64,000 bases of DNA from Escherichia coli (GCF_016903815.1 NZ_CP069973.1); one strand, 5' to 3'; counted from the first letter of the stretch, positions 10,921 to 40,577 are shown. Program-made: numbers and translations. The notes: a model not told the origin generated them from the sequence alone.

Positions 10921-12234
10921 TCAATCTTTTTTATCGGGATCAGGCTTCTTTTTAGGTAACTTCGGGGGCTTAACTTGCTGATGACTTTGCGTTCGGCGCG
11001 TAAGCCAGGGATGGTCAGCTTTAGGTTTAACATAGTATTTTGAGCGTAAATCAATACGGGCATTATCCACTCGTTCATGGACACTCTTTTCATCATCCAG
11101 TGGTATAGGCTCCGGGCCATCAACATACTTTTCCCAGCCCAGCGCTTTCCCGTCATACAGAACGTTAATTTCACCGTCAAAGTTCTCGCATACAGTAACA
11201 ACCGAATGCCTAAGTCGATATCCCCGGCCCTCACTGCGTACCTGAAACGCACTGCTTTTGTACTGGAAAGTGAGATTTTTAGACAGAACGCGCTTCGCCT
11301 GTAGGCTGAAGATATAACCCAGTTCCTCTTCAGAATGGTGCACATCAAGATGAGCATTATCAGTAGTACGAGGCGACGTAGCGAACCGGTTGTTATAGGC
11401 TTCAATAAAGGTCGGCAACCATGCATTTGCTGTTTCAATATCACTGATATTCTGAAGCCGCATTTCTTTGACCAGCCTGTCCTGTAGTGTCTGATTGGCG
11501 CGCTCTACCCGCCCTTTTGCCTGCGGGCTGTTGGCATGGATTGGCTCGATGCCCAGTGTCTTTATCGCACGAGTGAACTGGGTCAGCTCACCTTCCCGCT
11601 CTGGGTTATTTACCCTGAATATACTGTGTCTATCAGAGTAGAGAGCGAGCGGTACGCCATGATCATTAAGGTAACCCCGGAGGGTTTCCATGTAAGCCCG
11701 GGTTGTTTCAGCAGGCACAAAACGCAACGCCATCAACGCACTGGTGGCATCATCAATGAAAACGATCAGTGTACATCTGGGGCCTCGATTTTCAAACCAG
11801 TCATGAGGTGAGCCATCAATCTGGATCAGTTCACCGTAAGATGGTCGTCGCATGCGGCGTTGATATATACGGGCAATTTTACGACGGCGTTCACGCCATA
11901 ACCCCTCTTCTATCATCCACTTTCTGAGAGTTTCAACGGATAAAGATAAACCGTGTATCTCGCGCAATTTTTCGCACGCAAACGTAGGTCCAAAATCAGC
12001 GTAACGGCCTTTGAGGAGTGAAATTACTGTTGCTCTGAATTCAGTAGAAAAGGAATTATTAGGACGCTTTCCACGTCGGTGGGAAACCAGACCAGAAGGC
12101 CCTTCATTTCTATACCGTTGCACCAGACGTTTAACCTGCCGAATAGAAATGCCAATGCGTGCCGCAGCTTGTTCCTGAATAATCTGAAGTCGGTGGAGTT
12201 CCTTATGACTCATCGTAACAGTCTCTTTGATCAT
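10921..12234 (-). CDS. DDE transposase with N-terminal HTH and rve-type integrase core (IS481/ISNCY-like, family unresolved)
   Basis: 437-aa ORF; the rve/RNase-H-type core is inferred from the overall layout of the protein (segments such as IQIDGSPHDW, LIVFIDDATS, ALYSDRHSIF) and was not verified by a profile search; alternative start at 12213 (MSHKEL). Confidence 0.8.
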   Translation of the reverse strand: MIKETVTMSHKELHRLQIIQEQAAARIGISIRQVKRLVQRYRNEGPSGLVSHRRGKRPNNSFSTEFRATVISLLKGRYADFGPTFACEKLREIHGLSLSVETLRKWMIEEGLWRERRRKIARIYQRRMRRPSYGELIQIDGSPHDWFENRGPRCTLIVFIDDATSALMALRFVPAETTRAYMETLRGYLNDHGVPLALYSDRHSIFRVNNPEREGELTQFTRAIKTLGIEPIHANSPQAKGRVERANQTLQDRLVKEMRLQNISDIETANAWLPTFIEAYNNRFATSPRTTDNAHLDVHHSEEELGYIFSLQAKRVLSKNLTFQYKSSAFQVRSEGRGYRLRHSVVTVCENFDGEINVLYDGKALGWEKYVDGPEPIPLDDEKSVHERVDNARIDLRSKYYVKPKADHPWLTRRTQSHQQVKPPKLPKKKPDPDKKD

Positions 12235-12451
12235 GAAAAATCCCCCAGAGAATTGTCTGGGGACATTTTAGAATGGTTCAAAGGGGACATTACAGCTTGG
12301 TGTTAACAATAGCCTGCTTCTCCGTGCCTTTCGGCACGTAAGAGGCTAACCTACATGTGTCTAGCATGAAATTGGCCTCAGATTAATGTTAAGCGTCTTG
12401 CAGGACGCGTAATGTTAACTGGGGCTTTTCTCTATCTGCCTTTGGTGTTCG

Positions 12452-12481
12452 TGCCCGAGGCAGATAGCCTCAAGCACCCGC
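12452..12481 (+). repeat. Direct repeat copy A flanking the kwaAB-like cassette
   Basis: TGCCCGAGGCAGATAGCCTCAAGCACCCGC; 14-nt core CCTCAAGCACCCGC identical to copy B at 14487-14500; preceded by inverted repeat CTATCTGCC/GGCAGATAG. Confidence 0.6.
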
Positions 12482-12717: not shown

Positions 12718-13746
12718 TTACGCCTTAATAGGGTTAATCACATTTCCGCTATCCGTACCATAGTATTTTTTTGTAGTCATGCCTTGTTTATAATAATCAT
12801 TTAACAGTTTGAGAAAGTTTCTTCCTTGCCTCTCATCTTCTATGACTAATTTACCATGCTCATTGGTCTTAAACTCTTCGTTCTGAAACATTTTTAGCAC
12901 ATCATTCATAGCTTGAACATCATTCTTTTCCAGAACCGTATGGTTACCTTTCTCAGCGATATGAGTGAGAATTTTTCTCAGTGATGGCTTATGAAGAATA
13001 GCTTGTTCAATAACATCTAAACCTTCAATAAGATCAAGTTCTTTAATTGTATTTAATGTTTTTTGTGCAGCTTCTGTAAACTCAACCTCCAAGCCTACAA
13101 TAGCCTCAAAACTTTTCTTATGAAATACATAAAATTGATCTTTTATATAAATACAATCGATTTTGTCATCAAAATTGACTGCGCTGCCATCAAATGATCT
13201 TAACTCTTTATCTGTTTTATCAAACAAAGCGAATACGCGCTGAGTCATATTTTGTGGTTCATTTGTTGTGACTTTCCCCCTGCTGATTTTTCGGAAAGAA
13301 TAAGTGACGTCAGCCCCCTTTTGGACTTTAATACAATAGGCCCACAAATCATTCTGAACCTCAGCAAGAGAGGTAAGTACAACTGGTTTATCATTCTTTA
13401 TATCGTTATTAATAACTTTTGAAAACGATATCGCGTTATTCATAGCATAGGCATAAATTTTATTATCAATATCATCATCAATAACAGTATGCTTTTTCAT
13501 CACAATATCATCTTTCGAAGCATGAGAAATAATCTGGTTTGATAAAGTATACTTAAAAAATTTAGCAATATCTGGAGCGATTGGAGCTTTAATGATTTTA
13601 AAATCGAATTTATCAACAACTCTTGCGGTTCTACTCATACCCGCTTTAAGATGTCTAGTAATGAAATACAACGATATTTTCGCCGCATCATCATCCTTAA
13701 GTTGCTCAGCATACTCTAATAATTCTTCAAGCTTTAACATTTTCAT
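12718..13746 (-). CDS. Soluble 342-aa protein, candidate Kiwa KwaB-like (DUF4868-like) defense component
   Basis: Second gene of an AT-rich two-gene operon, 4-nt overlap with the upstream membrane-protein gene; family assignment by architecture only. Confidence 0.55.
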   Translation of the reverse strand: MKMLKLEELLEYAEQLKDDDAAKISLYFITRHLKAGMSRTARVVDKFDFKIIKAPIAPDIAKFFKYTLSNQIISHASKDDIVMKKHTVIDDDIDNKIYAYAMNNAISFSKVINNDIKNDKPVVLTSLAEVQNDLWAYCIKVQKGADVTYSFRKISRGKVTTNEPQNMTQRVFALFDKTDKELRSFDGSAVNFDDKIDCIYIKDQFYVFHKKSFEAIVGLEVEFTEAAQKTLNTIKELDLIEGLDVIEQAILHKPSLRKILTHIAEKGNHTVLEKNDVQAMNDVLKMFQNEEFKTNEHGKLVIEDERQGRNFLKLLNDYYKQGMTTKKYYGTDSGNVINPIKA

Positions 13747-14357
13747 TCCTTATGGGATTCAGCATAAAAAAGTTTTGGGCCCACGTCCTCAACATCAAGA
13801 AGATCATCTTCCTCCAAATACTTTGATTTAGTCAAAACCATACCAGTGCGTTTTTTGTCGCTTTCTAAATCCAAATATGTAACTTGATATAAAGTATAAT
13901 TAATACTTATTGTAGGATTTATAAGTATCATGCTTGAATTAATATATATTAAAGCCGTTACCGTTAACAATATTGCTATAGGTATAACATTAGTTAAAGT
14001 GGATAGATCCTGAAATACAAACGGAATTATATATGTAAAAAGATAGCTTATTGATTCATTGTTTTTATTTTCAATATCTATAACTCTTACAGTTCTACCA
14101 CTAGTGGCGCATCGACGTTTTATATTTTTTAAAAAAATTGTTAATCCTACAATACCAAATAATGATAATACACCAATGACACTGACCGCGCCAAAGTATT
14201 TAAAGAAAATAGTTAATGATTCAACACTTATACCTTTCCAATTTAAATAGCTTCTATAAGTATACAATTGCACAAAACACATGATAAAGAATAGGGGAAG
14301 GTATGACACTATAAATAGCGAAACTCTAGCACCTAAATGTAGTTTATTTACTCTCAT
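13743..14357 (-). CDS. Four-helix integral membrane protein, candidate Kiwa KwaA-like
   Basis: 204 aa with four hydrophobic segments (about residues 12-32, 55-76, 103-115, 125-140) and an acidic C-terminal tail; -10-like TAAAAT about 30 nt upstream. Confidence 0.55.
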   Translation of the reverse strand: MRVNKLHLGARVSLFIVSYLPLFFIMCFVQLYTYRSYLNWKGISVESLTIFFKYFGAVSVIGVLSLFGIVGLTIFLKNIKRRCATSGRTVRVIDIENKNNESISYLFTYIIPFVFQDLSTLTNVIPIAILLTVTALIYINSSMILINPTISINYTLYQVTYLDLESDKKRTGMVLTKSKYLEEDDLLDVEDVGPKLFYAESHKE

Positions 14358-14565: not shown

Positions 14566-15252
14566 TCACTCCTTCTCTTCTTTATCGTAGTGGAGTTGAC
14601 CAATTTTGATAAGAGGGCGTCCCTGAGATTTGCGGTGTAGATTGGTATCGCGCAGAGAATACACACAGCCACAATATTCCTGCTGATAGAATTTTTCGCG
14701 CTTGCTGATTTCAATCATGCGGGACGAGCCGCCCTGCTTGCGCCAGTTATAATCCCAGTACACCATGCCCGGATAATGCGCGACGGCTCGCCGCCCACAG
14801 TCGTTAACCTGCTGCATATTTTTCCAGCGTGAAATGCCCAGTGAACTGCTGATCACACTGAAACCATTTTCAGCAGCGTACAGCGCTGTCCGCTCAAAAC
14901 GCATGTCAAAACACATGGTACAACGGATCCCCCTCTCGGGCTCCCATTCCATTCCTTTGGCACGTTCAAACCAGTTGTCTGTGTCGTAATCAGCATCAAT
15001 AAATGGCACGCCGTGTTGTTCAGCAAAGCGAATATTCTCATCCTTACGAATTAAATACTCTTTCTGAGGATGAATGTTCGGGTTGTAGAAAAAGATGGTA
15101 TAGTCGATTCTCGAGGCCTGAAGTGCCTCCATCACTTCACCGGAACATGGAGCACAGCAAGAGTGCAGTAGTAGTTTGTTTGCCCCGTTTGGGAGCTCCA
15201 ATTTAGGCCGTTTGAAATCAGCAATAGTCATAAATATTTTTATTGGGGTCAT
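14566..15252 (-). CDS. QueH-like (DUF208) epoxyqueuosine-reductase homolog
   Basis: N-terminal [11 protein letters not shown] motif plus further conserved Cys (CTMC, CGC); alternative start at 15231. Confidence 0.65.
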
Positions 15253-19199: not shown

Positions 19200-19257
19200 T
19201 TTCTGGTGACGTTTGGCGGTATCAGTTTTACTCCGTGACTGCTCTGCCGCCGTTTTT
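19200..19257 (+). ncRNA. dicF: DicF small regulatory RNA
   Basis: TTTCTGGTGACGTTTGGCGGTATCAGTTTTACTCCGTGACTGCTCTGCCGCC followed by a T-tract, matching recalled DicF. Confidence 0.85.
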
Positions 19258-22440: not shown

Positions 22441-22692
22441 ATGAGCGAAGTAATCATGATTGTCTCTCCCGGCAAATGGGTATCCGAAGAGCAGTTAATT
22501 GCGCTGAAAGGAATAAAAAAAGGTACGTTAAAAAAGGCCCGGGAAAAATCGTTTATGGAAGGAAGGGAATATAAGCATGTCGCTCATGACGGTATGCCAT
22601 GGGATAACAGTCCATGCTTTTACAACCTGGAAGAAATTGATCGCTGGATTGAGCGCCAGGCATCAGCAAGACCAAGACGTCATCTTACTTGA
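22441..22692 (+). CDS. Excisionase-like small DNA-binding protein
   Basis: 83-aa basic ORF directly upstream of the integrase region; family unverified. Confidence 0.45.
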   Translation: MSEVIMIVSPGKWVSEEQLIALKGIKKGTLKKAREKSFMEGREYKHVAHDGMPWDNSPCFYNLEEIDRWIERQASARPRRHLT

Positions 22693-22762
22693 CTAAAAGC
22701 CACACTAACGTAACCGGCTCATTTAAACCGTCTGGTCTGTTTCCTCCGGCTCTACAAAAATA

Positions 22763-23440
22763 ATGTCCATCATTTTTAATGGACACTATCGTATGAAACA
22801 CCGGACCTGGATCACTGAAGCTTTACGTCTTCACTTTGAAGAACATTTACCCCGGGTTGTGGCCGGGCGTCGCCTGGGTGTACCAAAATCAACAGTTTGT
22901 AGTATGTTCGTGCGCTTTCGGAGAGCTGGCCTTTCGTGGCCTTTGCCCGCAGGCATGTCGGAGCAGGAACTTGATGCCTGCCTTTACGGACAATTTTCCA
23001 CGGTACCAGTCGTACGTCCTGAAAGCACCGTTATATCCGAAGCCCCCGTGGTAAAAAAACGTCCCCGGCGGCCCAACTTCCCTTATGAGTTTAAAATCGC
23101 CTTAGTGGAGCAGTCACTGCAGCCCGGAGCCTGTGTGGCGCAGATCGCCCGGGAAAACGGAATCAACGATAACCTGCTCTTCAACTGGCGCCATCAATAC
23201 CGGAAAGGTGGCCTGCTGCCTTCCGGAAAAAATATGCCGGCACTGCTTCCCGTGACGTTAACGCCGGAGCCGGATAATAAAATCCCGGCCCCCGCACAGG
23301 AACCAGAGCAGATAAATACACCGTCCGACAGTCTGTGTTGTGAGCTGGTTCTGCCGGCCGGAACTCTCAGGCTTAAAGGTAAACTGACGCCGGCGTTATT
23401 ACAGACACTTATCCGCGAAATAAAAGGGAGCAGCCACTGA
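22763..23440 (+). CDS. tnpA: IS66-family accessory protein (orf1/TnpA, HTH)
   Basis: ORF with IS66 orf1-like segment (…FKIALVEQSLQPGACVAQIARENGINDNLLFNWRHQYRKG…); start uncertain (22763 or 22793). Confidence 0.65.
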   Translation: MSIIFNGHYRMKHRTWITEALRLHFEEHLPRVVAGRRLGVPKSTVCSMFVRFRRAGLSWPLPAGMSEQELDACLYGQFSTVPVVRPESTVISEAPVVKKRPRRPNFPYEFKIALVEQSLQPGACVAQIARENGINDNLLFNWRHQYRKGGLLPSGKNMPALLPVTLTPEPDNKIPAPAQEPEQINTPSDSLCCELVLPAGTLRLKGKLTPALLQTLIREIKGSSH

Positions 23441-23787
23441 TGATATCTCTCCCTGCAGGTTCGCGTATCTGGCTGGTTGCAGGTATCACCGATATGCGAA
23501 ATGGCTTTAACGGCCTGGCATCAAAAGTTCAGAACGTCCTGAAGGATGACCCGTTCTCCGGACACCTGTTCATCTTCCGCGGACGCCGGGGTGACCAGAT
23601 AAAAGTGTTGTGGGCTGACAGTGACGGACTGTGCCTCTTCACCAAACGCCTGGAGCGGGGCCGCTTCGTCTGGCCAGTCACCCGTGACGGCAAGGTGCAC
23701 CTTACTCCGGCTCAGTTATCCATGCTTCTTGAAGGTATCAACTGGAAGCACCCGAAACGAACGGAACGCGCTGGAATCCGCATATAA
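23440..23787 (+). CDS. tnpB: IS66-family TnpB (orf2)
   Basis: 115 aa MISLPAGSRIWLVAGITDMRNGFNGLA…; ATGA overlap with orf1. Confidence 0.85.
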   Translation: MISLPAGSRIWLVAGITDMRNGFNGLASKVQNVLKDDPFSGHLFIFRGRRGDQIKVLWADSDGLCLFTKRLERGRFVWPVTRDGKVHLTPAQLSMLLEGINWKHPKRTERAGIRI

Positions 23788-23806
23788 CCCGTTGTAAAGT
23801 GAGGAT

Positions 23807-25378
23807 ATGGACACCTCACTTGCTCATGAGAACGCCCGCCTGCGGGCACTGTTGCAGACGCAACAGGACACCATCCGCCAGATGGCTGAATACAACCGCC
23901 TGCTCTCACAGCGGGTGGCGGCTTATGCTTCCGAAATCAACCGGCTGAAGGCGCTGGTTGCGAAACTGCAACGTATGCAGTTCGGTAAAAGCTCAGAAAA
24001 ACTTCGTGCAAAAACCGAACGGCAGATACAGGAAGCACAGGAGCGAATCAGCGCACTTCAGGAAGAAATGGCGGAAACGCTGGGTGAGCAATATGACCCG
24101 GTACTGCCATCCGCCCTGCGCCAGTCTTCAGCCCGTAAACCGTTACCGGCCTCACTTCCCCGTGAAACCCGGGTTATCCGGCCGGAAGAGGAATGCTGTC
24201 CTGCCTGTGGTGGTGAACTCAGTTCTCTGGGATGTGATGTGTCAGAGCAACTGGAGCTTATCAGCAGCGCCTTTAAGGTTATCGAAACACAACGTCCGAA
24301 ACAGGCCTGTTGCCGGTGCGACCATATCGTGCAGGCACCAGTACCTTCAAAACCCATTGCACGCAGTTATGCCGGAGCGGGGCTTCTGGCCCATGTTGTC
24401 ACCGGGAAATATGCAGACCATCTGCCGTTATACCGCCAGTCAGAAATATACCGTCGTCAGGGAGTGGAGCTGAGCCGTGCCACACTGGGGCGCTGGACAG
24501 GTGCTGTTGCTGAACTGCTGGAGCCGCTGTATGACGTCCTGCGCCAGTATGTGCTGATGCCCGGTAAAGTCCATGCTGATGATATCCCCGTCCCGGTCCA
24601 GGAGCCGGGCAGCGGTAAAACCCGGACAGCCCGGCTGTGGGTCTACGTCCGTGATGACCGTAACGCCGGTTCACAGATGCCCCCGGCGGTCTGGTTCGCG
24701 TACAGTCCGGACCGGAAAGGTATCCATCCACAAAATCACCTGGCCGGTTACAGCGGTGTGCTTCAGGCCGATGCTTACGGTGGTTACCGGGCGTTATACG
24801 AATCCGGCAGAATAACGGAAGCCGCGTGTATGGCTCATGCCCGGAGAAAAATCCACGATGTGCATGCAAGAGCGCCCACCTACATCACCACGGAAGCCCT
24901 GCAGCGTATCGGTGAACTGTATGCCATCGAGGCAGAGGTCCGGGGCTGTTCAGCAGAACAGCGTCTGGCGGCAAGAAAAGCCAGAGCCGCGCCACTGATG
25001 CAGTCACTGTATGACTGGATACAGCAACAGATGAAAACACTGTCGCGTCACTCAGATACGGCAAAAGCGTTCGCATACCTGCTGAAACAGTGGGATGCAC
25101 TGAACGTGTACTGCAGTAATGGCTGGGTGGAAATCGACAACAACATCGCAGAGAACGCCTTACGGGGAGTGGCCGTAGGCCGGAAAAACTGGATGTTCGC
25201 GGGTTCCAACAGCGGTGGTGAACATGCGGCGGTGTTGTACTCGCTGATCGGCACATGCCGTCTGAACAATGTGGAGCCAGAAAAGTGGCTGCGTTACGTC
25301 ATTGAACATATCCAGGACTGGCCGGCAAACCGGGTACGCGATCTGTTGCCCTGGAAAGTTGATCTGAGCTCTCAGTAA
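23807..25378 (+). CDS. tnpC: IS66-family transposase TnpC (DDE)
   Basis: 523 aa with coiled-coil N-terminus, CxxC zinc motifs (CPACGG…CCRCDH) and DDE core. Confidence 0.9.
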
Positions 25379-25433
25379 ATATCAATACGGTTCTGACGAG
25401 TCGCTTACACACTAACTAATGAGAGAAGTTGAA

Positions 25434-26714
25434 ATGAAATATCCGACAGGCGTGGAAAACCATGGAGGGAAATTACGTATCTGGTTTGTTTATAAAGGCG
25501 TAAGAGTCAGGGAAAACCTGGGGGTTCCTGACACAGCAAAAAACAGGCGCGTTGCAGGTGAGCTACGCGCCTCTGTTTGTTACGCAATAAAAACTGGTGT
25601 TTTCGACTATGCAAAACAGTTTCCCTCCTCACGCAATCTGGAAAAATTTGGTGAGACCCGACAAGATTTAACCATAAAAGAACTGGCTGAAAAATTTCTG
25701 GCACTGAAAGAAACTGAAGTCGCAAAAACATCACTCAACACATACCGTGCCGTCATCAAAAATATCCTGAGCATAATCGGTGAAAAAAATCTTGCCTCAT
25801 CGATTAATAAAGAAAAATTACTGGAGGTTCGTAAAGAGCTACTGACTGGATACCAGATCCCCAAAAGTAACTATATTGTTACACAACCAGGGAGATCGGC
25901 TGTAACTGTAAATAATTACATGACAAATCTTAACGCCGTGTTCCAGTTTGGTGTTGATAACGGTTACCTGGTAGATAACCCGTTTAAGGGGATCTCGCCA
26001 TTAAAGGAATCAAGAACCATTCCGGATCCTCTTTCGCGGGAGGAATTCATCCGTCTTATCGATGCGTGCAGAAATCAGCAAGCCAAAAATTTATGGTGTG
26101 TTTCTGTTTATACTGGCGTTCGCCCTGGTGAGCTGTGTGCACTTGGATGGGAGGACATAGATCTGAAAAATGGAACAATGATGATCAGGAGAAATTTAGC
26201 AAAAGACCGTTTCACGGTACCAAAAACACAGGCGGGAACCAATCGGGTCATTCATCTTATTAAGCCAGCAATCGACGCTCTCCGGAGTCAGATGACATTA
26301 ACGAGACTGAGCAAAGAGCATATCATTGATGTTCACCTCAGAGAGTATGGCAGAACAGAAAAACATAAATGCACCTTTGTTTTTCAACCTGAAGTGTCAG
26401 CGAGAGTAAAAAATTATGGTGACCATTTTACCGTTGACTCAATAAGGCAGATGTGGGACGCAGCGATAAAACGTGCCGGACTCCGCCATCGAAAATCATA
26501 TCAGTCGAGACATACTTATGCCTGCTGGTCGCTGACAGCTGGTGCTAACCCGGCATTTATAGCAAACCAGATGGGCCATGCAGATGCGCAAATGGTATTT
26601 CAGGTATACGGAAAATGGATGTCTGAAAACAATAATGCACAGGTAGCTTTGTTAAATACACAGTTAAGCGAGTTTGCCCCAACCATGCCCCATAACGAAG
26701 CAATGAAAAATTAA
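25434..26714 (+). CDS. intQ: Phage tyrosine integrase
   Basis: Start taken at MKYPTGVENHGGKLRIWF… (ORF 25419..26714); C-terminal catalytic region with R…HxxR…Y (HTYACW…VYGKW). Confidence 0.85.
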   Translation: MKYPTGVENHGGKLRIWFVYKGVRVRENLGVPDTAKNRRVAGELRASVCYAIKTGVFDYAKQFPSSRNLEKFGETRQDLTIKELAEKFLALKETEVAKTSLNTYRAVIKNILSIIGEKNLASSINKEKLLEVRKELLTGYQIPKSNYIVTQPGRSAVTVNNYMTNLNAVFQFGVDNGYLVDNPFKGISPLKESRTIPDPLSREEFIRLIDACRNQQAKNLWCVSVYTGVRPGELCALGWEDIDLKNGTMMIRRNLAKDRFTVPKTQAGTNRVIHLIKPAIDALRSQMTLTRLSKEHIIDVHLREYGRTEKHKCTFVFQPEVSARVKNYGDHFTVDSIRQMWDAAIKRAGLRHRKSYQSRHTYACWSLTAGANPAFIANQMGHADAQMVFQVYGKWMSENNNAQVALLNTQLSEFAPTMPHNEAMKN

Positions 26715-26901
26715 TTTAATATTTATCAAATAGTTGACACGTATGACTCTTGAAATCCATAAATTCAAGCGCAGTGCCCAGCCATCCCGATACTGCTGCT
26801 TTCACCAAATCCTTAGTGCTTCTTTCGTGTTTTTCTATTGTCATAATGGTTATCTCTAAAAAAGAGGTAAGATGCGTACTACTTACTCGCCGTTATTGGT
26901 A

Positions 26902-27921
26902 TTATTCAGAAAAAGTGAGTAAGACTTTGCAGCAATGTTTTTGATCCTGTTCAAATAAACTAATGGCATCAGCAACATGCTGGAAATCAAACGTATGGGT
27001 AATTAATTTTTCTGGTTTAATTAACCCTTTACTTAACCAGTCGATAACGACCGGGAATTTATTTGCATTTAAGCGTGAAGAGAAAATAGAGAGTTCTTTT
27101 CCGGTAATTCCTTGCTGAATCACTTCAGACGGTTCACTGGAGAAGCCCATCAATACAATACGTGCCGCTGGAGAAGCCAGAGTTACGGCCTCTTTCAGGA
27201 TAGAAGGATGACAAGCCGCATCGATAATTAATGTCGGCTTTATGCCTTTTTCAGCGAAAATCTCGCCAAGCGGTGTCTGGCTGTTATTAATCGCCCAGTC
27301 AGCCCCGCTCTCTTTCGCTTTTTCCAGTCGTTCATCAATGCGATCGGCAACAATCACATTTTTAACGTTATAGACGCCTTTTAATACCTGAACGATCGTC
27401 AGGCCGATTGGACCGGCACCGTAAACCAGAACGGTATCATTTTCAGTCGGTTGACCATGACCGGTTACGTTCGCCGCAATGGTAAAAGGTTCGATCATCA
27501 CCGCATATTGATCGGCCACTGCTTCAGGAATTTTCCACGCATTTTTTGCCGGAACCACGGCATATTCACTGAAACCACCGTCAGCGTGCACACCTAATAC
27601 AGCCAGTGTTGTACAAACGTTCGGCTTACCTATAGAGCACGGATAGCAATGCCCACAGCTGACCACCGGATCGACAGCAACGCGTTCACCGACTCTGGCG
27701 CTTTCCACGCCTTCACCCACTGCATCAATGACGCCAAAAAATTCATGTCCAATGACGCGCGGATATTTCGCAAAAGGATTATGCCCACGATAAATATGGC
27801 TATCTGAACCACAAATTCCGGCAAGTTTCACTTTTACTCGTACTTCACCCGCTGACGGGGTAGGTATTTCGCGTTCGATAATTGCCAGTTGATTCGGTTT
27901 TTCAATTAAAATGCTTTTCAT
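26902..27921 (-). CDS. rspB: Zn-dependent alcohol dehydrogenase family protein RspB
   Basis: 339 aa from MKSILIEKPNQ…; GHE and Cys-rich structural-Zn motifs. Confidence 0.9.
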   Translation of the reverse strand: MKSILIEKPNQLAIIEREIPTPSAGEVRVKVKLAGICGSDSHIYRGHNPFAKYPRVIGHEFFGVIDAVGEGVESARVGERVAVDPVVSCGHCYPCSIGKPNVCTTLAVLGVHADGGFSEYAVVPAKNAWKIPEAVADQYAVMIEPFTIAANVTGHGQPTENDTVLVYGAGPIGLTIVQVLKGVYNVKNVIVADRIDERLEKAKESGADWAINNSQTPLGEIFAEKGIKPTLIIDAACHPSILKEAVTLASPAARIVLMGFSSEPSEVIQQGITGKELSIFSSRLNANKFPVVIDWLSKGLIKPEKLITHTFDFQHVADAISLFEQDQKHCCKVLLTFSE

Positions 27922-34561: not shown

Positions 34562-36985
34562 ATGAAAATCCATACCACAGAGGCGCTCATGAAGGCTGAA
34601 ATCAGCCGTAGAAGTCTGATGAAAACCTCCGCACTTGGCAGTCTTGCGCTGGCAAGCAGTGCTTTCACTCTGCCATTTTCCCAAATGGTCCGAGCGGCAG
34701 AGGCACCGGTAGAAGAGAAAGCGGTCTGGAGTTCCTGCACCGTTAACTGCGGGAGCCGCTGTCTGTTACGTTTGCATGTGAAAGATGACACCGTGTACTG
34801 GGTGGAGTCTGATACGACAGGTGACGACGTCTACGGTAATCATCAGGTTCGGGCATGTTTACGCGGGCGCTCTATCCGCCGACGGATGAATCATCCTGAC
34901 AGGTTGAAATATCCCATGAAGCGCGTCGGCAAGCGCGGTGAAGGTAAATTTGAACGGATAAGTTGGGATGAAGCCCTGGATACCATCAGTGATAATCTTC
35001 GGCGGATCCTTAAAGATTACGGCAATGAGGCTGTACATGTCCTGTACGGAACAGGCGTAGATGGCGGAAACATCACCAACTCAAACGTCCCGTACCGTCT
35101 GATGAACTCTTGCGGTGGTTTTCTCAGTCGCTATGGTAGCTACAGTACCGCACAGATCAGTGCCGCGATGAATTATATGTTCGGTGCCAATGATGGCAAC
35201 AGCCCGGATGATATCGCCAATACGAAACTGGTCGTTATGTTCGGAAATAACCCGGCAGAAACGCGGATGAGCGGCGGTGGTGTCACTTACTACGTCGAGC
35301 AAGCCCGCGAACGTTCAAACGCACGCATGATCGTCATCGATCCACGTTATAACGACACTGCTGCCGGGCGTGAAGATGAATGGCTGCCCATTCGCCCTGG
35401 CACCGATGGCGCACTGGCCTGTGCGATTGCCTGGGTACTGATTACTGAAAACATGGTCGATCAGCCATTTCTCGACAAATATTGTGTTGGTTACGATGAA
35501 AAAACGCTGCCCGCCAACGCACCACGTAACGCGCATTATAAAGCCTATATTCTGGGCGAAGGGCCTGACGGCATAGCTAAAACGCCGGAATGGGCAGCAA
35601 AAATCACCAGCATACCGGCAGAAAAAATTATCCAGTTGGCACGAGAGATCGGTTCAGCAAAACCTGCTTATATTTGTCAGGGTTGGGGGCCACAACGACA
35701 CTCCAACGGCGAACAAACGTCCCGCGCTATTGCCATGCTTTCCGTTCTCACCGGTAACGTCGGCATAAACGGCGGCAACTCAGGTGTACGCGAAGGTAGC
35801 TGGGATCTGGGGGTAGAATGGTTCCCGATGCTTGAGAATCCTGTTAAAACGCAGATTTCCGTCTTTACATGGACAGATGCCATCGACCACGGTACGGAAA
35901 TGACCGCGACCCGTGATGGTGTTCGTGGAAAAGAAAAACTGGATGTCCCCATCAAGTTTTTATGGTGCTACGCCAGTAACACATTGATCAATCAACATGG
36001 CGACATCAATCACACCCATGAGGTGCTTCAGGATGACAGCAAGTGCGAGATGATTGTTGGCATTGACCACTTCATGACTGCCTCGGCTAAGTATTGCGAT
36101 ATCCTGTTGCCCGACCTGATGCCAACAGAGCAAGAAGACCTTATCTCTCACGAATCTGCCGGGAATATGGGCTATGTGATCCTCGCCCAACCCGCAACCT
36201 CAGCAAAATTTGAACGCAAACCCATCTACTGGATGCTGAGCGAAGTCGCCAAACGCTTAGGACCAGACGTTTATCAAACCTTTACTGAAGGCCGCAGTCA
36301 GCACGAATGGATCAAATATCTCCATGCGAAAACGAAGGAACGTAACCCTGAGATGCCCGACTACGAGGAGATGAAAACGACCGGGATCTTTAAGAAAAAA
36401 TGCCCGGAAGAACACTACGTCGCTTTCCGCGCATTCCGTGAAGATCCACAGGCAAACCCGTTGAAAACACCTTCGGGGAAAATCGAAATTTATTCTGAAC
36501 GACTGGCGAAGATTGCAGATACCTGGGAATTGAAAAAAGATGAAATTATTCATCCCCTTCCTGCGTATACCCCAGGTTTTGATGGCTGGGACGATCCCCT
36601 GCGGAAAACCTATCCACTGCAGCTAACGGGCTTCCACTACAAAGCGCGTACCCACTCCAGCTACGGCAATATTGATGTGTTACAGCAGGCCTGCCCACAA
36701 GAGGTGTGGATCAACCCCATTGATGCTCAGGCACGCGGTATCCGTCATGGCGATACCGTGCGGGTATTTAACAATAATGGAGAAATGCTGATTGCCGCAA
36801 AAGTGACTCCGCGTATTCTGCCTGGCGTTACCGCCATCGGGCAAGGTGCGTGGCTTAAAGCGGATATGTTTGGTGACCGGGTCGATCACGGCGGCAGTAT
36901 CAATATTCTGACCTCTCACCGCCCTTCACCGCTGGCAAAGGGAAACCCGTCGCACAGCAATCTTGTCCAGATCGAAAAGGTTTAA
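34562..36985 (+). CDS. ynfF: Molybdopterin oxidoreductase catalytic subunit YnfF (DmsA paralog, Tat signal)
   Basis: 807 aa, tandem paralog of ynfE; Tat motif SRRSLMK. Confidence 0.9.
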   Translation: MKIHTTEALMKAEISRRSLMKTSALGSLALASSAFTLPFSQMVRAAEAPVEEKAVWSSCTVNCGSRCLLRLHVKDDTVYWVESDTTGDDVYGNHQVRACLRGRSIRRRMNHPDRLKYPMKRVGKRGEGKFERISWDEALDTISDNLRRILKDYGNEAVHVLYGTGVDGGNITNSNVPYRLMNSCGGFLSRYGSYSTAQISAAMNYMFGANDGNSPDDIANTKLVVMFGNNPAETRMSGGGVTYYVEQARERSNARMIVIDPRYNDTAAGREDEWLPIRPGTDGALACAIAWVLITENMVDQPFLDKYCVGYDEKTLPANAPRNAHYKAYILGEGPDGIAKTPEWAAKITSIPAEKIIQLAREIGSAKPAYICQGWGPQRHSNGEQTSRAIAMLSVLTGNVGINGGNSGVREGSWDLGVEWFPMLENPVKTQISVFTWTDAIDHGTEMTATRDGVRGKEKLDVPIKFLWCYASNTLINQHGDINHTHEVLQDDSKCEMIVGIDHFMTASAKYCDILLPDLMPTEQEDLISHESAGNMGYVILAQPATSAKFERKPIYWMLSEVAKRLGPDVYQTFTEGRSQHEWIKYLHAKTKERNPEMPDYEEMKTTGIFKKKCPEEHYVAFRAFREDPQANPLKTPSGKIEIYSERLAKIADTWELKKDEIIHPLPAYTPGFDGWDDPLRKTYPLQLTGFHYKARTHSSYGNIDVLQQACPQEVWINPIDAQARGIRHGDTVRVFNNNGEMLIAAKVTPRILPGVTAIGQGAWLKADMFGDRVDHGGSINILTSHRPSPLAKGNPSHSNLVQIEKV

Positions 36986-36995
36986 GGAGTAGCCC

Positions 36996-37613
36996 ATGAC
37001 CACACAATATGGATTTTTTATCGATTCCAGCCGCTGTACTGGCTGTAAAACCTGCGAACTGGCGTGCAAAGATTTTAAAGATCTTGGCCCGGAAGTCAGT
37101 TTCCGCCGTATTTATGAATATGCTGGCGGCGACTGGCAGGAAGATAATGGCGTCTGGCACCAGAACGTGTTCGCTTATTATCTCTCCATCTCCTGTAACC
37201 ATTGCGATGACCCCGCATGTACAAAAGTCTGCCCCAGCGGCGCAATGCATAAGCGTGAAGATGGCTTTGTGGTGGTTGATGAAGATGTTTGTATCGGCTG
37301 CCGCTACTGCCACATGGCTTGTCCGTACGGCGCGCCACAGTACAATGCTGAAAAAGGGCACATGACGAAGTGCGATGGTTGTTATTCGCGCGTCGCCGAG
37401 GGGAAACAACCCATATGTGTCGAATCCTGCCCGCTGCGTGCACTTGAGTTCGGTCCAATTGATGAGCTGCGCCAGAAGCACGGCACTCTGGCTGCCGTCG
37501 CGCCACTGCCGCGCGCGCATTTCACAAAACCCAATATCGTTATCAAACCTAACGCCAACAGCCGCCCGACCGGCGATACCACTGGTTATCTGGCTAATCC
37601 GGAGGAAGTGTAA
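36996..37613 (+). CDS. ynfG: 4Fe-4S ferredoxin subunit YnfG (DmsB paralog)
   Basis: 205 aa with four Cys clusters. Confidence 0.9.
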   Translation: MTTQYGFFIDSSRCTGCKTCELACKDFKDLGPEVSFRRIYEYAGGDWQEDNGVWHQNVFAYYLSISCNHCDDPACTKVCPSGAMHKREDGFVVVDEDVCIGCRYCHMACPYGAPQYNAEKGHMTKCDGCYSRVAEGKQPICVESCPLRALEFGPIDELRQKHGTLAAVAPLPRAHFTKPNIVIKPNANSRPTGDTTGYLANPEEV

Positions 37614-37614
37614 A

Positions 37615-38469
37615 ATGGGAAATGGATGGCATGAATGGCCACTGGTTATCTTTACCGTATTGGGTCAATGCGTAGTAGGCGCGCTGATTGTTAGCGGAAT
37701 TGGCTGGTTCGCCGCCAATAATGACGCAGACCGTCAGCGTATTGTCCGTGGCATGTTTTTCCTCTGGCTGTTGATGGGCATCGGGTTTATTGCCTCTGTC
37801 ATGCACCTGGGATCGCCACTGCGAGCGTTTAACTCGCTGAATCGAATCGGTGCTTCTGGTCTGAGTAACGAAATTGCTGCCGGTTCAATATTTTTTGCCG
37901 TTGGCGGATTATGGTGGCTGGTGGCAGTCATCGGTAAAATGCCGCAAGCGTTGGGGAAACTCTGGTTACTTGTCAGCATGGCGCTCGGCGTCATTTTCGT
38001 CTGGATGATGACCTGCGTGTATCAAATCGACACAGTGCCAACCTGGCATAACGGTTACACTACGCTGGCTTTCTTCCTGACAGTATTATTGAGCGGTCCA
38101 ATACTTGCTGCTGCAATTCTGCGGGCAGCCCGCGTTACATTTAATACCACACCATTTGCCATCATTAGCGTTCTGGCGCTGATCGCTTGTGCCGGGGTGA
38201 TTGTGCTGCAAGGTTTGTCTCTGGCGTCTATTCACTCATCCGTACAACAAGCCAGCGCACTGGTACCAGATTACGCCTCCTTACAGGTCTGGCGTGTGGT
38301 ATTGTTATGCACAGGTCTAGGATGCTGGCTTTGTCCGCTCATTCGTCGCCGTGAACCTCACGTTGCCGGACTTGTTCTGGGGCTAATCCTCATACTTGAC
38401 GGTGAGATGATCGGGCGTGTGCTCTTTTATGGCCTGCACATGACGGTAGGAATGGCTATTGCAGGTTAA
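37615..38469 (+). CDS. ynfH: Membrane anchor subunit YnfH (DmsC paralog)
   Basis: 284 aa from MGNGWHEWPLVIFTVLGQ…; ATG 1 nt after the ynfG stop; the longer ORF 37375.. is an out-of-frame extension. Confidence 0.9.
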   Translation: MGNGWHEWPLVIFTVLGQCVVGALIVSGIGWFAANNDADRQRIVRGMFFLWLLMGIGFIASVMHLGSPLRAFNSLNRIGASGLSNEIAAGSIFFAVGGLWWLVAVIGKMPQALGKLWLLVSMALGVIFVWMMTCVYQIDTVPTWHNGYTTLAFFLTVLLSGPILAAAILRAARVTFNTTPFAIISVLALIACAGVIVLQGLSLASIHSSVQQASALVPDYASLQVWRVVLLCTGLGCWLCPLIRRREPHVAGLVLGLILILDGEMIGRVLFYGLHMTVGMAIAG

Positions 38470-38511
38470 CAAATTGGTGCGGGGCAACCCGCACATTTCA
38501 GGATGTTAGGA

Positions 38512-39126
38512 ATGACCCATTTTTCACAGCAAGATAATTTTTCTGTCACGGCGCGCGTGTTGGGCGCGCTGTTTTATTACGCTCCAGAGAGTGCGGAAGC
38601 CGCACCTCTGGTTGCGGTACTCACCCGTGACGGCTGGGAAACTCAGTGGCCTCTACCAGAAGCGTCATTAGCGCCGCTGGTGACGGCTTTTCAGGCACAG
38701 AGTGAAGAGACTCGCGCCCAGGCCTGGCAGCGTTTGTTTGTCGGCCCGTGGGCACTGCCGTCTCCGCCGTGGGGATCGGTCTGGCTGGATCGCGAATCTG
38801 TGCTGTTTGGCGATTCAACATTGGCACTTCGTCAGTGGATGCGCGAGAAAGGCATTCAGTTTGAAATGAAGCAAAACGAACCGGAAGATCATTTTGGTTC
38901 ACTGCTCTTGATGGCTGCGTGGTTGGCGGAGAATGGTCGCCAGACAGAATGCGAAGAATTGCTGGCATGGCACCTTTTTCCGTGGTCAACACGTTTTCTT
39001 GACGTTTTTATCGAAAAAGCAGAACACCCTTTCTACCGTGCACTGGGTGAACTGGCTCGCTTAACGCTGGCGCAATGGCAATCACAACTGTTAATTCCTG
39101 TCGCGGTTAAACCACTCTTTCGATAG
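38512..39126 (+). CDS. dmsD: Tat proofreading chaperone DmsD
   Basis: 204 aa from MTHFSQQDNFSVTARVLGALFYY…. Confidence 0.9.
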   Translation: MTHFSQQDNFSVTARVLGALFYYAPESAEAAPLVAVLTRDGWETQWPLPEASLAPLVTAFQAQSEETRAQAWQRLFVGPWALPSPPWGSVWLDRESVLFGDSTLALRQWMREKGIQFEMKQNEPEDHFGSLLLMAAWLAENGRQTECEELLAWHLFPWSTRFLDVFIEKAEHPFYRALGELARLTLAQWQSQLLIPVAVKPLFR

Positions 39127-39320
39127 GATCACCTTATTATTGCCGGATGGTGACGATTACGCGCAATTCGGCAATAATAGGTTACAGTGTCACGTTTTTT
39201 TATCTCTTAAAGCACGCACTGCTTTTGCGGCTGGCCTCTTTTGCCGCAAAATAGTCGCCCGTGTTTCATTGCCCATTTCTGCTCATGCATCATCTACACA
39301 TCTATCCGGATCTGCGCACT

Positions 39321-40577
39321 ATGTTCCGCCGTCTGCTTATCGCAACAGTCGTCGGTATTCTCGCGGCCTTTGCCGTTGCCGGGTTTCGTCATACGATGCT
39401 GCTACTGGAGTGGTTGTTCCTCAATAATGACTCGGGCAGTCTGGTCAATGCAGCGACAAATCTTTCCCCGTGGCGACGGCTGCTAACTCCGGCGCTCGGC
39501 GGACTGGCGGCGGGTTTGTTGCTGATGGGCTGGCAGAAATTTACCCAGCAACGCCCTCATGCGCCGACCGATTACATGGAAGCGTTGCAAACCGATGGGC
39601 AGTTTGATTACGCAGCAAGCCTGGTTAAATCGCTTGCCTCTCTGCTGGTAGTAACCAGCGGCAGTGCAATTGGTCGCGAAGGTGCGATGATTCTTTTAGC
39701 TGCCCTTGCCGCCTCCTGTTTTGCCCAACGTTTTACGCCACGCCAGGAGTGGAAATTATGGATCGCCTGTGGAGCTGCGGCGGGAATGGCTGCGGCCTAT
39801 CGCGCCCCGCTTGCTGGCAGTTTATTTATAGCCGAAGTGCTGTTTGGCACTATGATGTTGGCCTCTCTCGGCCCGGTGATTATTTCCGCCGTCGTGGCGT
39901 TGCTGGTTAGCAATCTGATTAATCATAGCGACGCGTTACTCTACAGCGTACAACTCTCAGTGACGATTCAGGCTCGTGACTATGCGCTGATTATCAGTAC
40001 AGGTGTGCTGGCAGGTCTGTGCGGACCACTGTTGTTAACGTTAATGAACGCCTGTCATCGTGGATTTGTAAGTCTCAAACTTGCGCCGCCCTGGCAACTG
40101 GCACTGGGCGGGTTGATCGTGGGTCTGCTTTCCCTGTTCACACCTGCAGTGTGGGGCAACGGCTATAGCACCGTACAATCCTTTTTAACCGCCCCGCCAC
40201 TGTTAATGATCATTGCCGGGATCTTCCTCTGTAAACTGTTTGCCGTGCTGGCGAGTAGTGGTTCTGGCGCGCCCGGTGGTGTCTTTACACCGACGCTATT
40301 TATCGGTCTTGCCATTGGCATGTTGTATGGTCGTAGCCTGGGATTATGGTTCCCTGATGGCGAAGAAATTACGCTTTTACTCGGATTGACCGGGATGGCG
40401 ACACTGTTGGCGGCAACCACGCACGCGCCGATTATGTCGACGTTGATGATATGTGAAATGACCGGGGAGTATCAGCTACTCCCCGGTTTATTGATTGCCT
40501 GCGTAATTGCGTCGGTAATTTCGCGGACGTTACACCGTGACTCTATCTACCGCCAGCACACTGCGAAGCATAGCTAA
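39321..40577 (+). CDS. clcB: Voltage-gated ClC-type chloride channel ClcB
   Basis: 418 aa from [17 protein letters not shown]…. Confidence 0.85.

Follow-up and report, generated by a model that had tools for sequence, protein, structure and literature searches.

An ISCro1 copy between the excisionase and integrase genes of a Qin-locus lambdoid prophage in Escherichia coli

An insertion sequence lying between the excisionase and integrase genes of a prophage raises a simple question: does the insertion hold the phage in the chromosome, or did it arrive in a prophage whose fate was settled by other events? Such an insertion is present in the 64,000-nucleotide stretch of Escherichia coli DNA analysed here (GCF_016903815.1, NZ_CP069973.1), hereafter the window, and the initial annotation regarded it as recent and as a possible cause of a locked prophage. 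We therefore consider in turn the element and its identity, the age of the insertion, the attachment sites of the prophage and the consequences for integrase expression. Genome comparisons covered 5,426 complete E. coli genomes.

Structure and identity of the inserted element

The element is a complete insertion sequence of 2,699 bp (22710-25408, plus strand). Its ends are directly abutted by the octamer ACACTAAC, at 22702-22709 on the left and at 25409-25416 on the right, both read from the sequence, and the octamer is present in a single copy where the site is empty. No other copy of ACACTAAC exists in the window. This count is per se unremarkable, since two or more copies occurred in 39 of 100 shuffled controls, but with the element ends fixed, two octamers flanking them would agree by chance with a probability of 4^-8, about 1.5e-5 by arithmetic. 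The significance of the octamer is thus its position at the element ends and not its copy number. Imperfect terminal inverted repeats of 22 nt are found at the exact ends of the element: the left one (IRL, 22710-22731) reads GTAACCGGCTCATTTAAACCGT and the right one (IRR, 25387-25408) reads GTAAGCGACTCGTCAGAACCGT as its reverse complement. They match at 16 of 22 positions, and both start with GTAA.

Three ORFs are present on the plus strand. The first, tnpA (22763-23440), encodes an accessory protein of 225 aa as annotated, which reaches 295.8 bits with the NCBIfam profile NF038385 (IS66_access_TnpA; curated cut-off 150) and contains Pfam HTH_Tnp_1 at residues 102-159. Because the family profile begins at residue 13, the true start of tnpA may be the ATG at 22793. 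The second, tnpB (23440-23787), encodes an IS66-type accessory protein of 115 aa (NF033819 IS66_TnpB, 128.9 bits, curated cut-off 50), and its ATG has one base in common with the tnpA stop (TGATG at 23438-23442). The third, tnpC (23807-25378), begins 19 nt past the tnpB stop and encodes a DDE transposase of 523 aa (NF033517 transpos_IS66, 476.6 bits, curated cut-off 180), with the Pfam domains LZ_Tnp_IS66, zf-IS66, DDE_Tnp_IS66 (E=7.8e-103) and DDE_Tnp_IS66_C.

The hallmarks of the IS66 family are the gene order tnpA-tnpB-tnpC, imperfect terminal repeats of about 20-30 bp beginning with 5'-GTAA and an 8-bp target duplication. Every defining feature that was tried was found here, namely a TnpC-type DDE transposase, overlapping tnpA and tnpB genes upstream of it, GTAA repeats and the 8-bp duplication, and all three proteins score above their NCBIfam cut-offs. 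The element is an intact member of the family. The initial annotation had likewise described an IS66-family element of 2.7 kb with three ORFs, imperfect GTAA-initiated inverted repeats and identical flanking octamers, and on re-reading this description was correct in each part. The prototypes of the family are IS679 and IS66, reportedly described by Han et al. in 2001 (J Bacteriol 183:4296) and by Machida et al. in 1984; references to this work appear in PMC6778807. The present element resembles them in the order of tnpA, tnpB and tnpC, the tnpA/tnpB overlap, the GTAA repeat starts and the 8-bp duplication, but is a distinct element by sequence. Its TnpA differs from theirs in being of the longer NF038385 subtype, with an extra N-terminal region (approximately residues 13-100) and a weak match to HTH_23.

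Complete E. coli genomes contain many copies, both on chromosomes and on plasmids, that match the element with 100% identity over 2,699 bp, and in these identical copies RefSeq names the transposase "IS66-like element ISCro1 family". The published ISCro1 is an IS66-family element, 2,699 bp long, that duplicates 8 bp of its target (PMC12115866); it was first named in Citrobacter rodentium ICC168, where it has expanded to 24 copies (PMC3072379). Length, the three genes, the duplication and the nucleotide identity to RefSeq-labelled copies all agree, no difference was detectable, and the insertion site alone is particular to the clone. By sequence, then, the element is indistinguishable from ISCro1, a name that rests on the product names given by RefSeq/PGAP and on the length in the literature. 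The window contains one copy, complete and presumably active.

Near-full-length copies of ISCro1 were found in 1,492 of the 5,426 genomes. Six other copies that we examined represent four distinct insertion sites. Three of these sites have 8-bp duplications (ACATAATT, GGACATCC and GTTTTGCT), and the fourth, seen in three records, has a 9-bp duplication (ATGAAAATC). Identical copies at other sites include one in the plasmid gene traD of a strain that bears the chromosomal xis-int insertion as well. By this comparative evidence of identical copies, varied sites and differing duplications, ISCro1 has evidently been mobile in E. coli. ISCro1 is catalogued and widespread, the insertion is an ordinary one, and 76 complete RefSeq genomes already have it, with annotation, at precisely this site.

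The xis-int module and the age of the insertion

The genes on both sides of the element are intact. The upstream gene, xis (22441-22692, plus strand), encodes a protein of 83 aa that matches Pfam DUF1233, putative excisionase (E=1.9e-31); a search of the same protein against NCBIfam gave no match. Its PGAP name in identical genomes is "excisionase family protein". In phages mEp460, Tritos, HannyBb and PhiR42_1, the corresponding region is annotated as excisionase and shows 99-99.7% identity. The downstream gene, int (25434-26714, plus strand), encodes a tyrosine integrase of 426 aa with the Pfam domains Arm-DNA-bind_2 (E=1.3e-23) and Phage_integrase (E=7.8e-18), and its product, WP_021523105.1, is common to genomes with and without the IS. 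An arm-binding tyrosine recombinase next to an excisionase gene is the gene pair of a lambdoid integration module, and the location between an excisionase-like gene and an integrase gene given in the initial annotation is supported by the domains of both proteins.

DicF RNA, dicB, ydfD and the gene for an 823-aa exonuclease are found upstream of xis on the same strand, while rspB and rspA are located downstream of int. The module forms the right-hand end of a lambdoid prophage at the Qin locus. The order dicB-ydfD-exonuclease-xis-int-attP is that of mEp460 and its relatives Tritos, HannyBb and PhiR42_1 and of the cryptic prophage Qin of K-12. The integration site is inside ydfJ and beside rspB, as is that of Qin on the K-12 map. 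A tRNA search of the window gave no tRNA, and an att site of the tRNA type is thus excluded.

From the xis stop codon (22690-22692) there are 9 nt to the duplication and 17 nt to the IS proper, and 25 nt separate the right end of the IS at 25408 from the int ATG annotated by PGAP at 25434. The distances given initially (10 bp past the xis stop and about 25 bp before the int ATG) were essentially right. The uninterrupted spacer between xis and int is 34 nt, and the two genes are now 2.7 kb apart. ISCro1 has the same orientation as both (plus strand), and the ribosome-binding region of int (25417-25433) is untouched by the insertion.

The empty site was sought with a query of 620 bp composed of the left flank, a single octamer and the right flank. 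This query was recovered uninterrupted and with 100% identity over its 620 bp in many E. coli genomes, and 2,531 genomes have a match that covers at least 80% of it. The four phages mEp460, Tritos, HannyBb and PhiR42_1 also have the uninterrupted empty site, with 99-99.7% identity, and the xis-int spacer of mEp460 is identical letter by letter to the reconstructed spacer. The occupied site with its flanks is 100% identical in 76 of the 5,426 genomes; the carriers come from several continents, and one of them, KY1497, has been published as ST405 (PMC7035895).

The comparison with insertion-free strains proposed in the initial annotation included two near-identical sister genomes, in which the site is empty and has a single octamer. 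Left of the insertion, AR_0067 and the window are 3 SNPs apart in 20,319 bp; on the right there are none in 20,314 bp. For 98205, the corresponding counts are 1 SNP in 17,935 bp and 1 in 16,730 bp. Since the site is uninterrupted in these sisters and in mEp460, the element got here by genuine transposition and duplicated 8 bp of its target. Because such close relatives keep the empty site, it arose inside the clone and is still polymorphic there, among genomes that are 0-3 SNPs per 20 kb apart, so the proposal of a recent insertion holds. In mechanistic terms, ISCro1 transposed into the 34-nt spacer of an mEp460/Qin-type integration module at the ydfJ/rspB locus, in an E. coli clone to which published isolates of ST405 belong. 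The perfect duplication would result from cuts staggered by 8 bp at ACACTAAC and from subsequent gap repair. The presence or absence of ISCro1 at this site offers a clone-internal marker among ST405-type genomes.

A second element close by, IS200C, was considered as a nested marker for the order of events. It is present in 58 genomes, against 76 with ISCro1, and all four combinations of presence and absence occur, so there is no simple nesting. The four combinations imply at least one loss or recombination event in this prophage, and such an event would also be compatible with the opposite polarity of change, in which the ISCro1-bearing state is ancestral and the empty sites arose when the IS and one octamer were precisely excised. 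This is extremely unlikely. Empty-site matches covering at least 80% of the 620-bp query were found in 2,531 genomes, against only 76 with ISCro1, and four free-living phages have the uninterrupted spacer. DDE elements of the IS66 family are not known to excise precisely as a rule. Elements of the IS200/IS605 family, on the other hand, do excise precisely, and this property explains the four combinations more simply.

Attachment sites and probable chimeric organization of the prophage

If the insertion were responsible for locking the prophage, the attachment sites should be those of an otherwise excisable element. The attR site of the window is the junction between the int-side phage arm and an N-terminal fragment of ydfJ. 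Its core, GAAATCCATAA, has 11 bp (26752-26762) and was delimited by a three-way comparison of the window, mEp460 attP and the attL of strain 7/2. Integration has severed ydfJ after its first 31 codons (MTIEKHERST...LEFMDF; 26752-26844, minus strand) from the remainder of the gene. In mEp460, attP consists of an int-side arm that matches the window up to the core, the core itself and a second arm, so that arms and core agree with the attR seen here.

The closest complete genome is that of strain 7/2, with 2 SNPs in 44.4 kb relative to the window. In this strain the equivalent attR is at 1,849,063, and a site at 1,591,575 joins the second arm and the core to what is left of ydfJ, annotated there as "missing N-terminus" (at 1,591,577). 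The cognate attL is therefore about 257 kb away and in the opposite orientation. We found no direct-repeat pair of attL and attR flanking one prophage in strain 7/2, the inverted site 257 kb off being the sole partner of the core GAAATCCATAA. The left end of the phage-like unit in this strain has no copy of the 11-bp core, and a comparison of window positions 26601-27000 with the left 6.5 kb of the 7/2 prophage gave no repeat of 14 nt or more and a single unrelated 12-mer.

This lack of an att repeat at the left end of the prophage led us to the hypothesis of an inversion, with which the gene content of both ends is consistent. At its left end, the unit of about 53 kb that terminates in int starts from uspF-sitABCD, followed by tail-fibre, tail, head and terminase genes. 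The genes uspF-ompN-ydbK-ldhA flank the Rac locus on the K-12 map. A reciprocal hybrid is found at 1.56-1.59 Mb in strain 7/2, where a Rac-type part with trkG and ydaY leads into J-lom-tail fibres-pinQ-ydfK-ydfJ'. The two hybrids share an inverted block of 7.6 kb that is 98.6% identical and extends from minor tail L to J, lom and the N-terminus of the tail fibre. We suggest that recombination across this tail-gene repeat, between a Qin-locus and a Rac-locus prophage, inverted about 220 kb, and that the inversion separated the attR of int from its cognate attL before ISCro1 came. The repeat is the obvious substrate for such an event.

In E. coli O157:H7, large inversions have reportedly been described that arise by recombination of homologous lambdoid prophages flanking the terminus. 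The present case resembles them in its inverted prophage pair, its 7.6-kb block of 98.6% identity and its exchanged host flanks; it differs in its endpoints, here a Rac-locus and a Qin-locus prophage in an ST405-type genome. With respect to mEp460 and Qin, the differences are that the spacer of the window is split by ISCro1 and that the prophage is chimeric, with its other end at the Rac locus.

All four IS-bearing genomes that were checked (7/2, KY1497, AR_0015 and PEC1013) have the uspF-sit left flank, and so does AR_0067, the only IS-free sister whose left flank was checked. The left prophage end of the window's own genome lies outside the window, and we infer its chimeric state from these five near-identical complete genomes. 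Since IS-free AR_0067 has an equal chimeric left flank, the chimeric structure would predate the ISCro1 insertion. Likewise, because attL and attR are inverted and 257 kb apart, the unit should be unable to excise as a prophage, and recombination between the two sites would invert the intervening segment instead.

Prophage mobility and expression of int

These observations bear directly on the proposal that the insertion locks the prophage. In such a model, the prophage would otherwise be excisable, an early leftward-type transcript and any int promoter inside xis would express Xis and Int together, and the IS would block this co-expression. The position of ISCro1 fits, exactly between the two genes, at distances of 17 nt from the xis stop and 25 nt from the int ATG, and the active phages mEp460, Tritos, HannyBb and PhiR42_1 use an uninterrupted module. 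A negative effect of the same element on a neighbouring gene is also on record, transcription of afaA being reduced by 2.5 log2 in ST131 when ISCro1 lies upstream (PMC8764528). However, the cognate attL is inverted and far away and the left end of the unit lacks the core. IS-free AR_0067 is likewise chimeric, which places immobilisation first, and ISCro1 points in the direction of xis and int, no terminator being predicted ahead of int. We consider a lock imposed by the insertion improbable. ISCro1 has very probably entered the xis-int spacer of a prophage that was already immobilised, with little or no effect on mobility, and the insertion would be expected to have no phenotype in this respect. 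An IS between xis and int therefore calls for an examination of the att sites before a prophage is described as locked, since the att sites at this locus point to an earlier immobilisation by inversion between prophages.

That the insertion uncouples xis from int, as the initial annotation held probable, does not follow from the sequence. In a crude consensus scan, no plus-strand terminator was predicted within the IS or between tnpC and int, and RNA folds at the IS ends are unremarkable (z = -1.36 at the left end and +1.42 at the right end). Because the IS is co-oriented, has no predicted plus-strand terminator and is not unusually structured at its right end, read-through from the IS into int is plausible. 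Some polarity is also possible, given the reduced transcription of afaA in ST131. The untranslated gaps are short, with 70-100 nt ahead of tnpA and 55 nt behind tnpC, but Rho-dependent polarity within them could still silence int. If int is affected at all, an altered level through polarity or read-through seems more likely than a complete block. A hybrid or outward promoter at an IS end was also considered and had no support in a sigma-70 scan, a crude consensus search that detected none within xis, at either end of the IS or ahead of int.

Finally, the inverted attachment sites allow a different role to be envisaged for the insertion, an adaptive one. Changed levels of Int and Xis might dampen or enable an attL-attR flip of the 257-kb terminus-proximal segment, or tnp transcripts might drive int. 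Several features are compatible with this idea: int and xis are undamaged, as are the inverted attL and attR, no terminator is predicted on the way from tnpC to int, and the 76 complete genomes with the insertion come from several continents. Nevertheless, we regard it as very unlikely, as the consensus scan gave no outward sigma-70-like promoter at the IS end, and we give as little credence to its strongest form, in which the Int/Xis module would be a site-specific switch that inverts the terminus segment and ISCro1 would have been kept for retuning or silencing it. There is no sign of orientation switching, the arrangement being equal in 5 of 5 genomes inspected, and clonal hitch-hiking explains the spread of the insertion equally well.

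Inversion between the Rac- and Qin-locus prophages

In strain 7/2, the closest complete genome, about 220 kb is inverted across the terminus region outside the window, and the partners are the Rac-locus prophage and the Qin-locus prophage. The two share a 7.6-kb tail-gene block, 98.6% identical and inverted, at NZ_CP023820.1 1,579,448-1,587,016 (19448-27016 in comparison sequence L006) and 1,800,151-1,807,720 (5152-12721 in L002). This block probably mediated the inversion. Its outcome is two chimeric prophages, with attL inverted relative to attR (core at window 26752-26762) and 257 kb away from it. The Rac/Qin inversion was seen in all five ST405-type genomes inspected (7/2, AR_0067, KY1497, AR_0015 and PEC1013).

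Insertion sequences among members of the clone

An IS200C element lies in the ynfU/cspB interval (window about 4074-4778), and a match to the sRNA STnc490 in Rfam (4645-4768) falls within it. AR_0067 has this copy and 98205 does not, both being near-identical genomes free of ISCro1. The IS200C junction was counted in 58 genomes, versus 76 for the ISCro1 junction, and all four combinations of presence and absence occur, which points to loss or recombination inside the clone. One may ask whether precise excision of the IS200 type is a route of such loss.

Strain 7/2 carries an extra IS1 in the ydfO/gnsB interval (NZ_CP023820.1 1,822,243-1,822,940) that is lacking at the corresponding position of the window (about 644-653). 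From one member of the clone to another, this prophage is thus collecting different IS elements: IS1, IS200C, ISCro1 and an ISNCY remnant. In strain M21170 (NZ_CP133919.1 2,546,327-2,551,799), the ISCro1 insertion is accompanied in the same stretch by an additional ISApl1 of the IS30 family, and the integrase is annotated as two parts; ISApl1 here is a second IS strike on the integration module. In 98205, an ISEcp1-blaCTX-M-15 unit splits chromosomal mlc (36249-40445 in comparison sequence L003), a gene uninterrupted in the window (about 41.3-42.6 kb).

The ISNCY-family transposase ORF occupies window 10921-12234 on the minus strand. Immediately upstream of it is a full-length Rfam match to the sok antitoxin RNA (12308-12479, minus strand, 105.6 bits). 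With no recognisable hok ORF near the sok match, the arrangement resembles a hok/sok locus cut down by the ISNCY-family element.

ISCro1 in other sequence contexts

One insertion context of ISCro1 is common to plasmids pCTXM14_005215 and pE94-4 and to the chromosome of XJW9B263 (L009, L012 and L013), the element being flanked there by a 9-bp duplication, ATGAAAATC, where 8 bp is typical of the family. An identical ISCro1 interrupts traD of the F-type plasmid p1_040047 of strain WCHEC040047 (L010), with the duplication GGACATCC. WCHEC040047 also has the chromosomal xis-int insertion, and the presence of copies on both replicons is plausibly a sign of plasmid-chromosome traffic.

Other genes of the prophage

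The sRNA DicF was matched in Rfam (window 19201-19252, plus strand, 72.5 bits), and dicB, ydfD, the exonuclease gene, xis and int follow downstream on the same strand, which places xis and int at the distal end of a dicB-type operon. The prophage also carries the anti-phage system Kiwa, complete with its two genes, both on the minus strand: KwaB (12718-13740) matches PDLC00223 (E=5e-158), and KwaA (13743-14357), named merely 'hypothetical' by PGAP, matches PDLC00212 (E=1e-101). A gene annotated as a QueH-type epoxyqueuosine reductase (14566-15231, minus strand), for which the PADLOC search gave no match, adjoins the Kiwa genes in the early region of the prophage.
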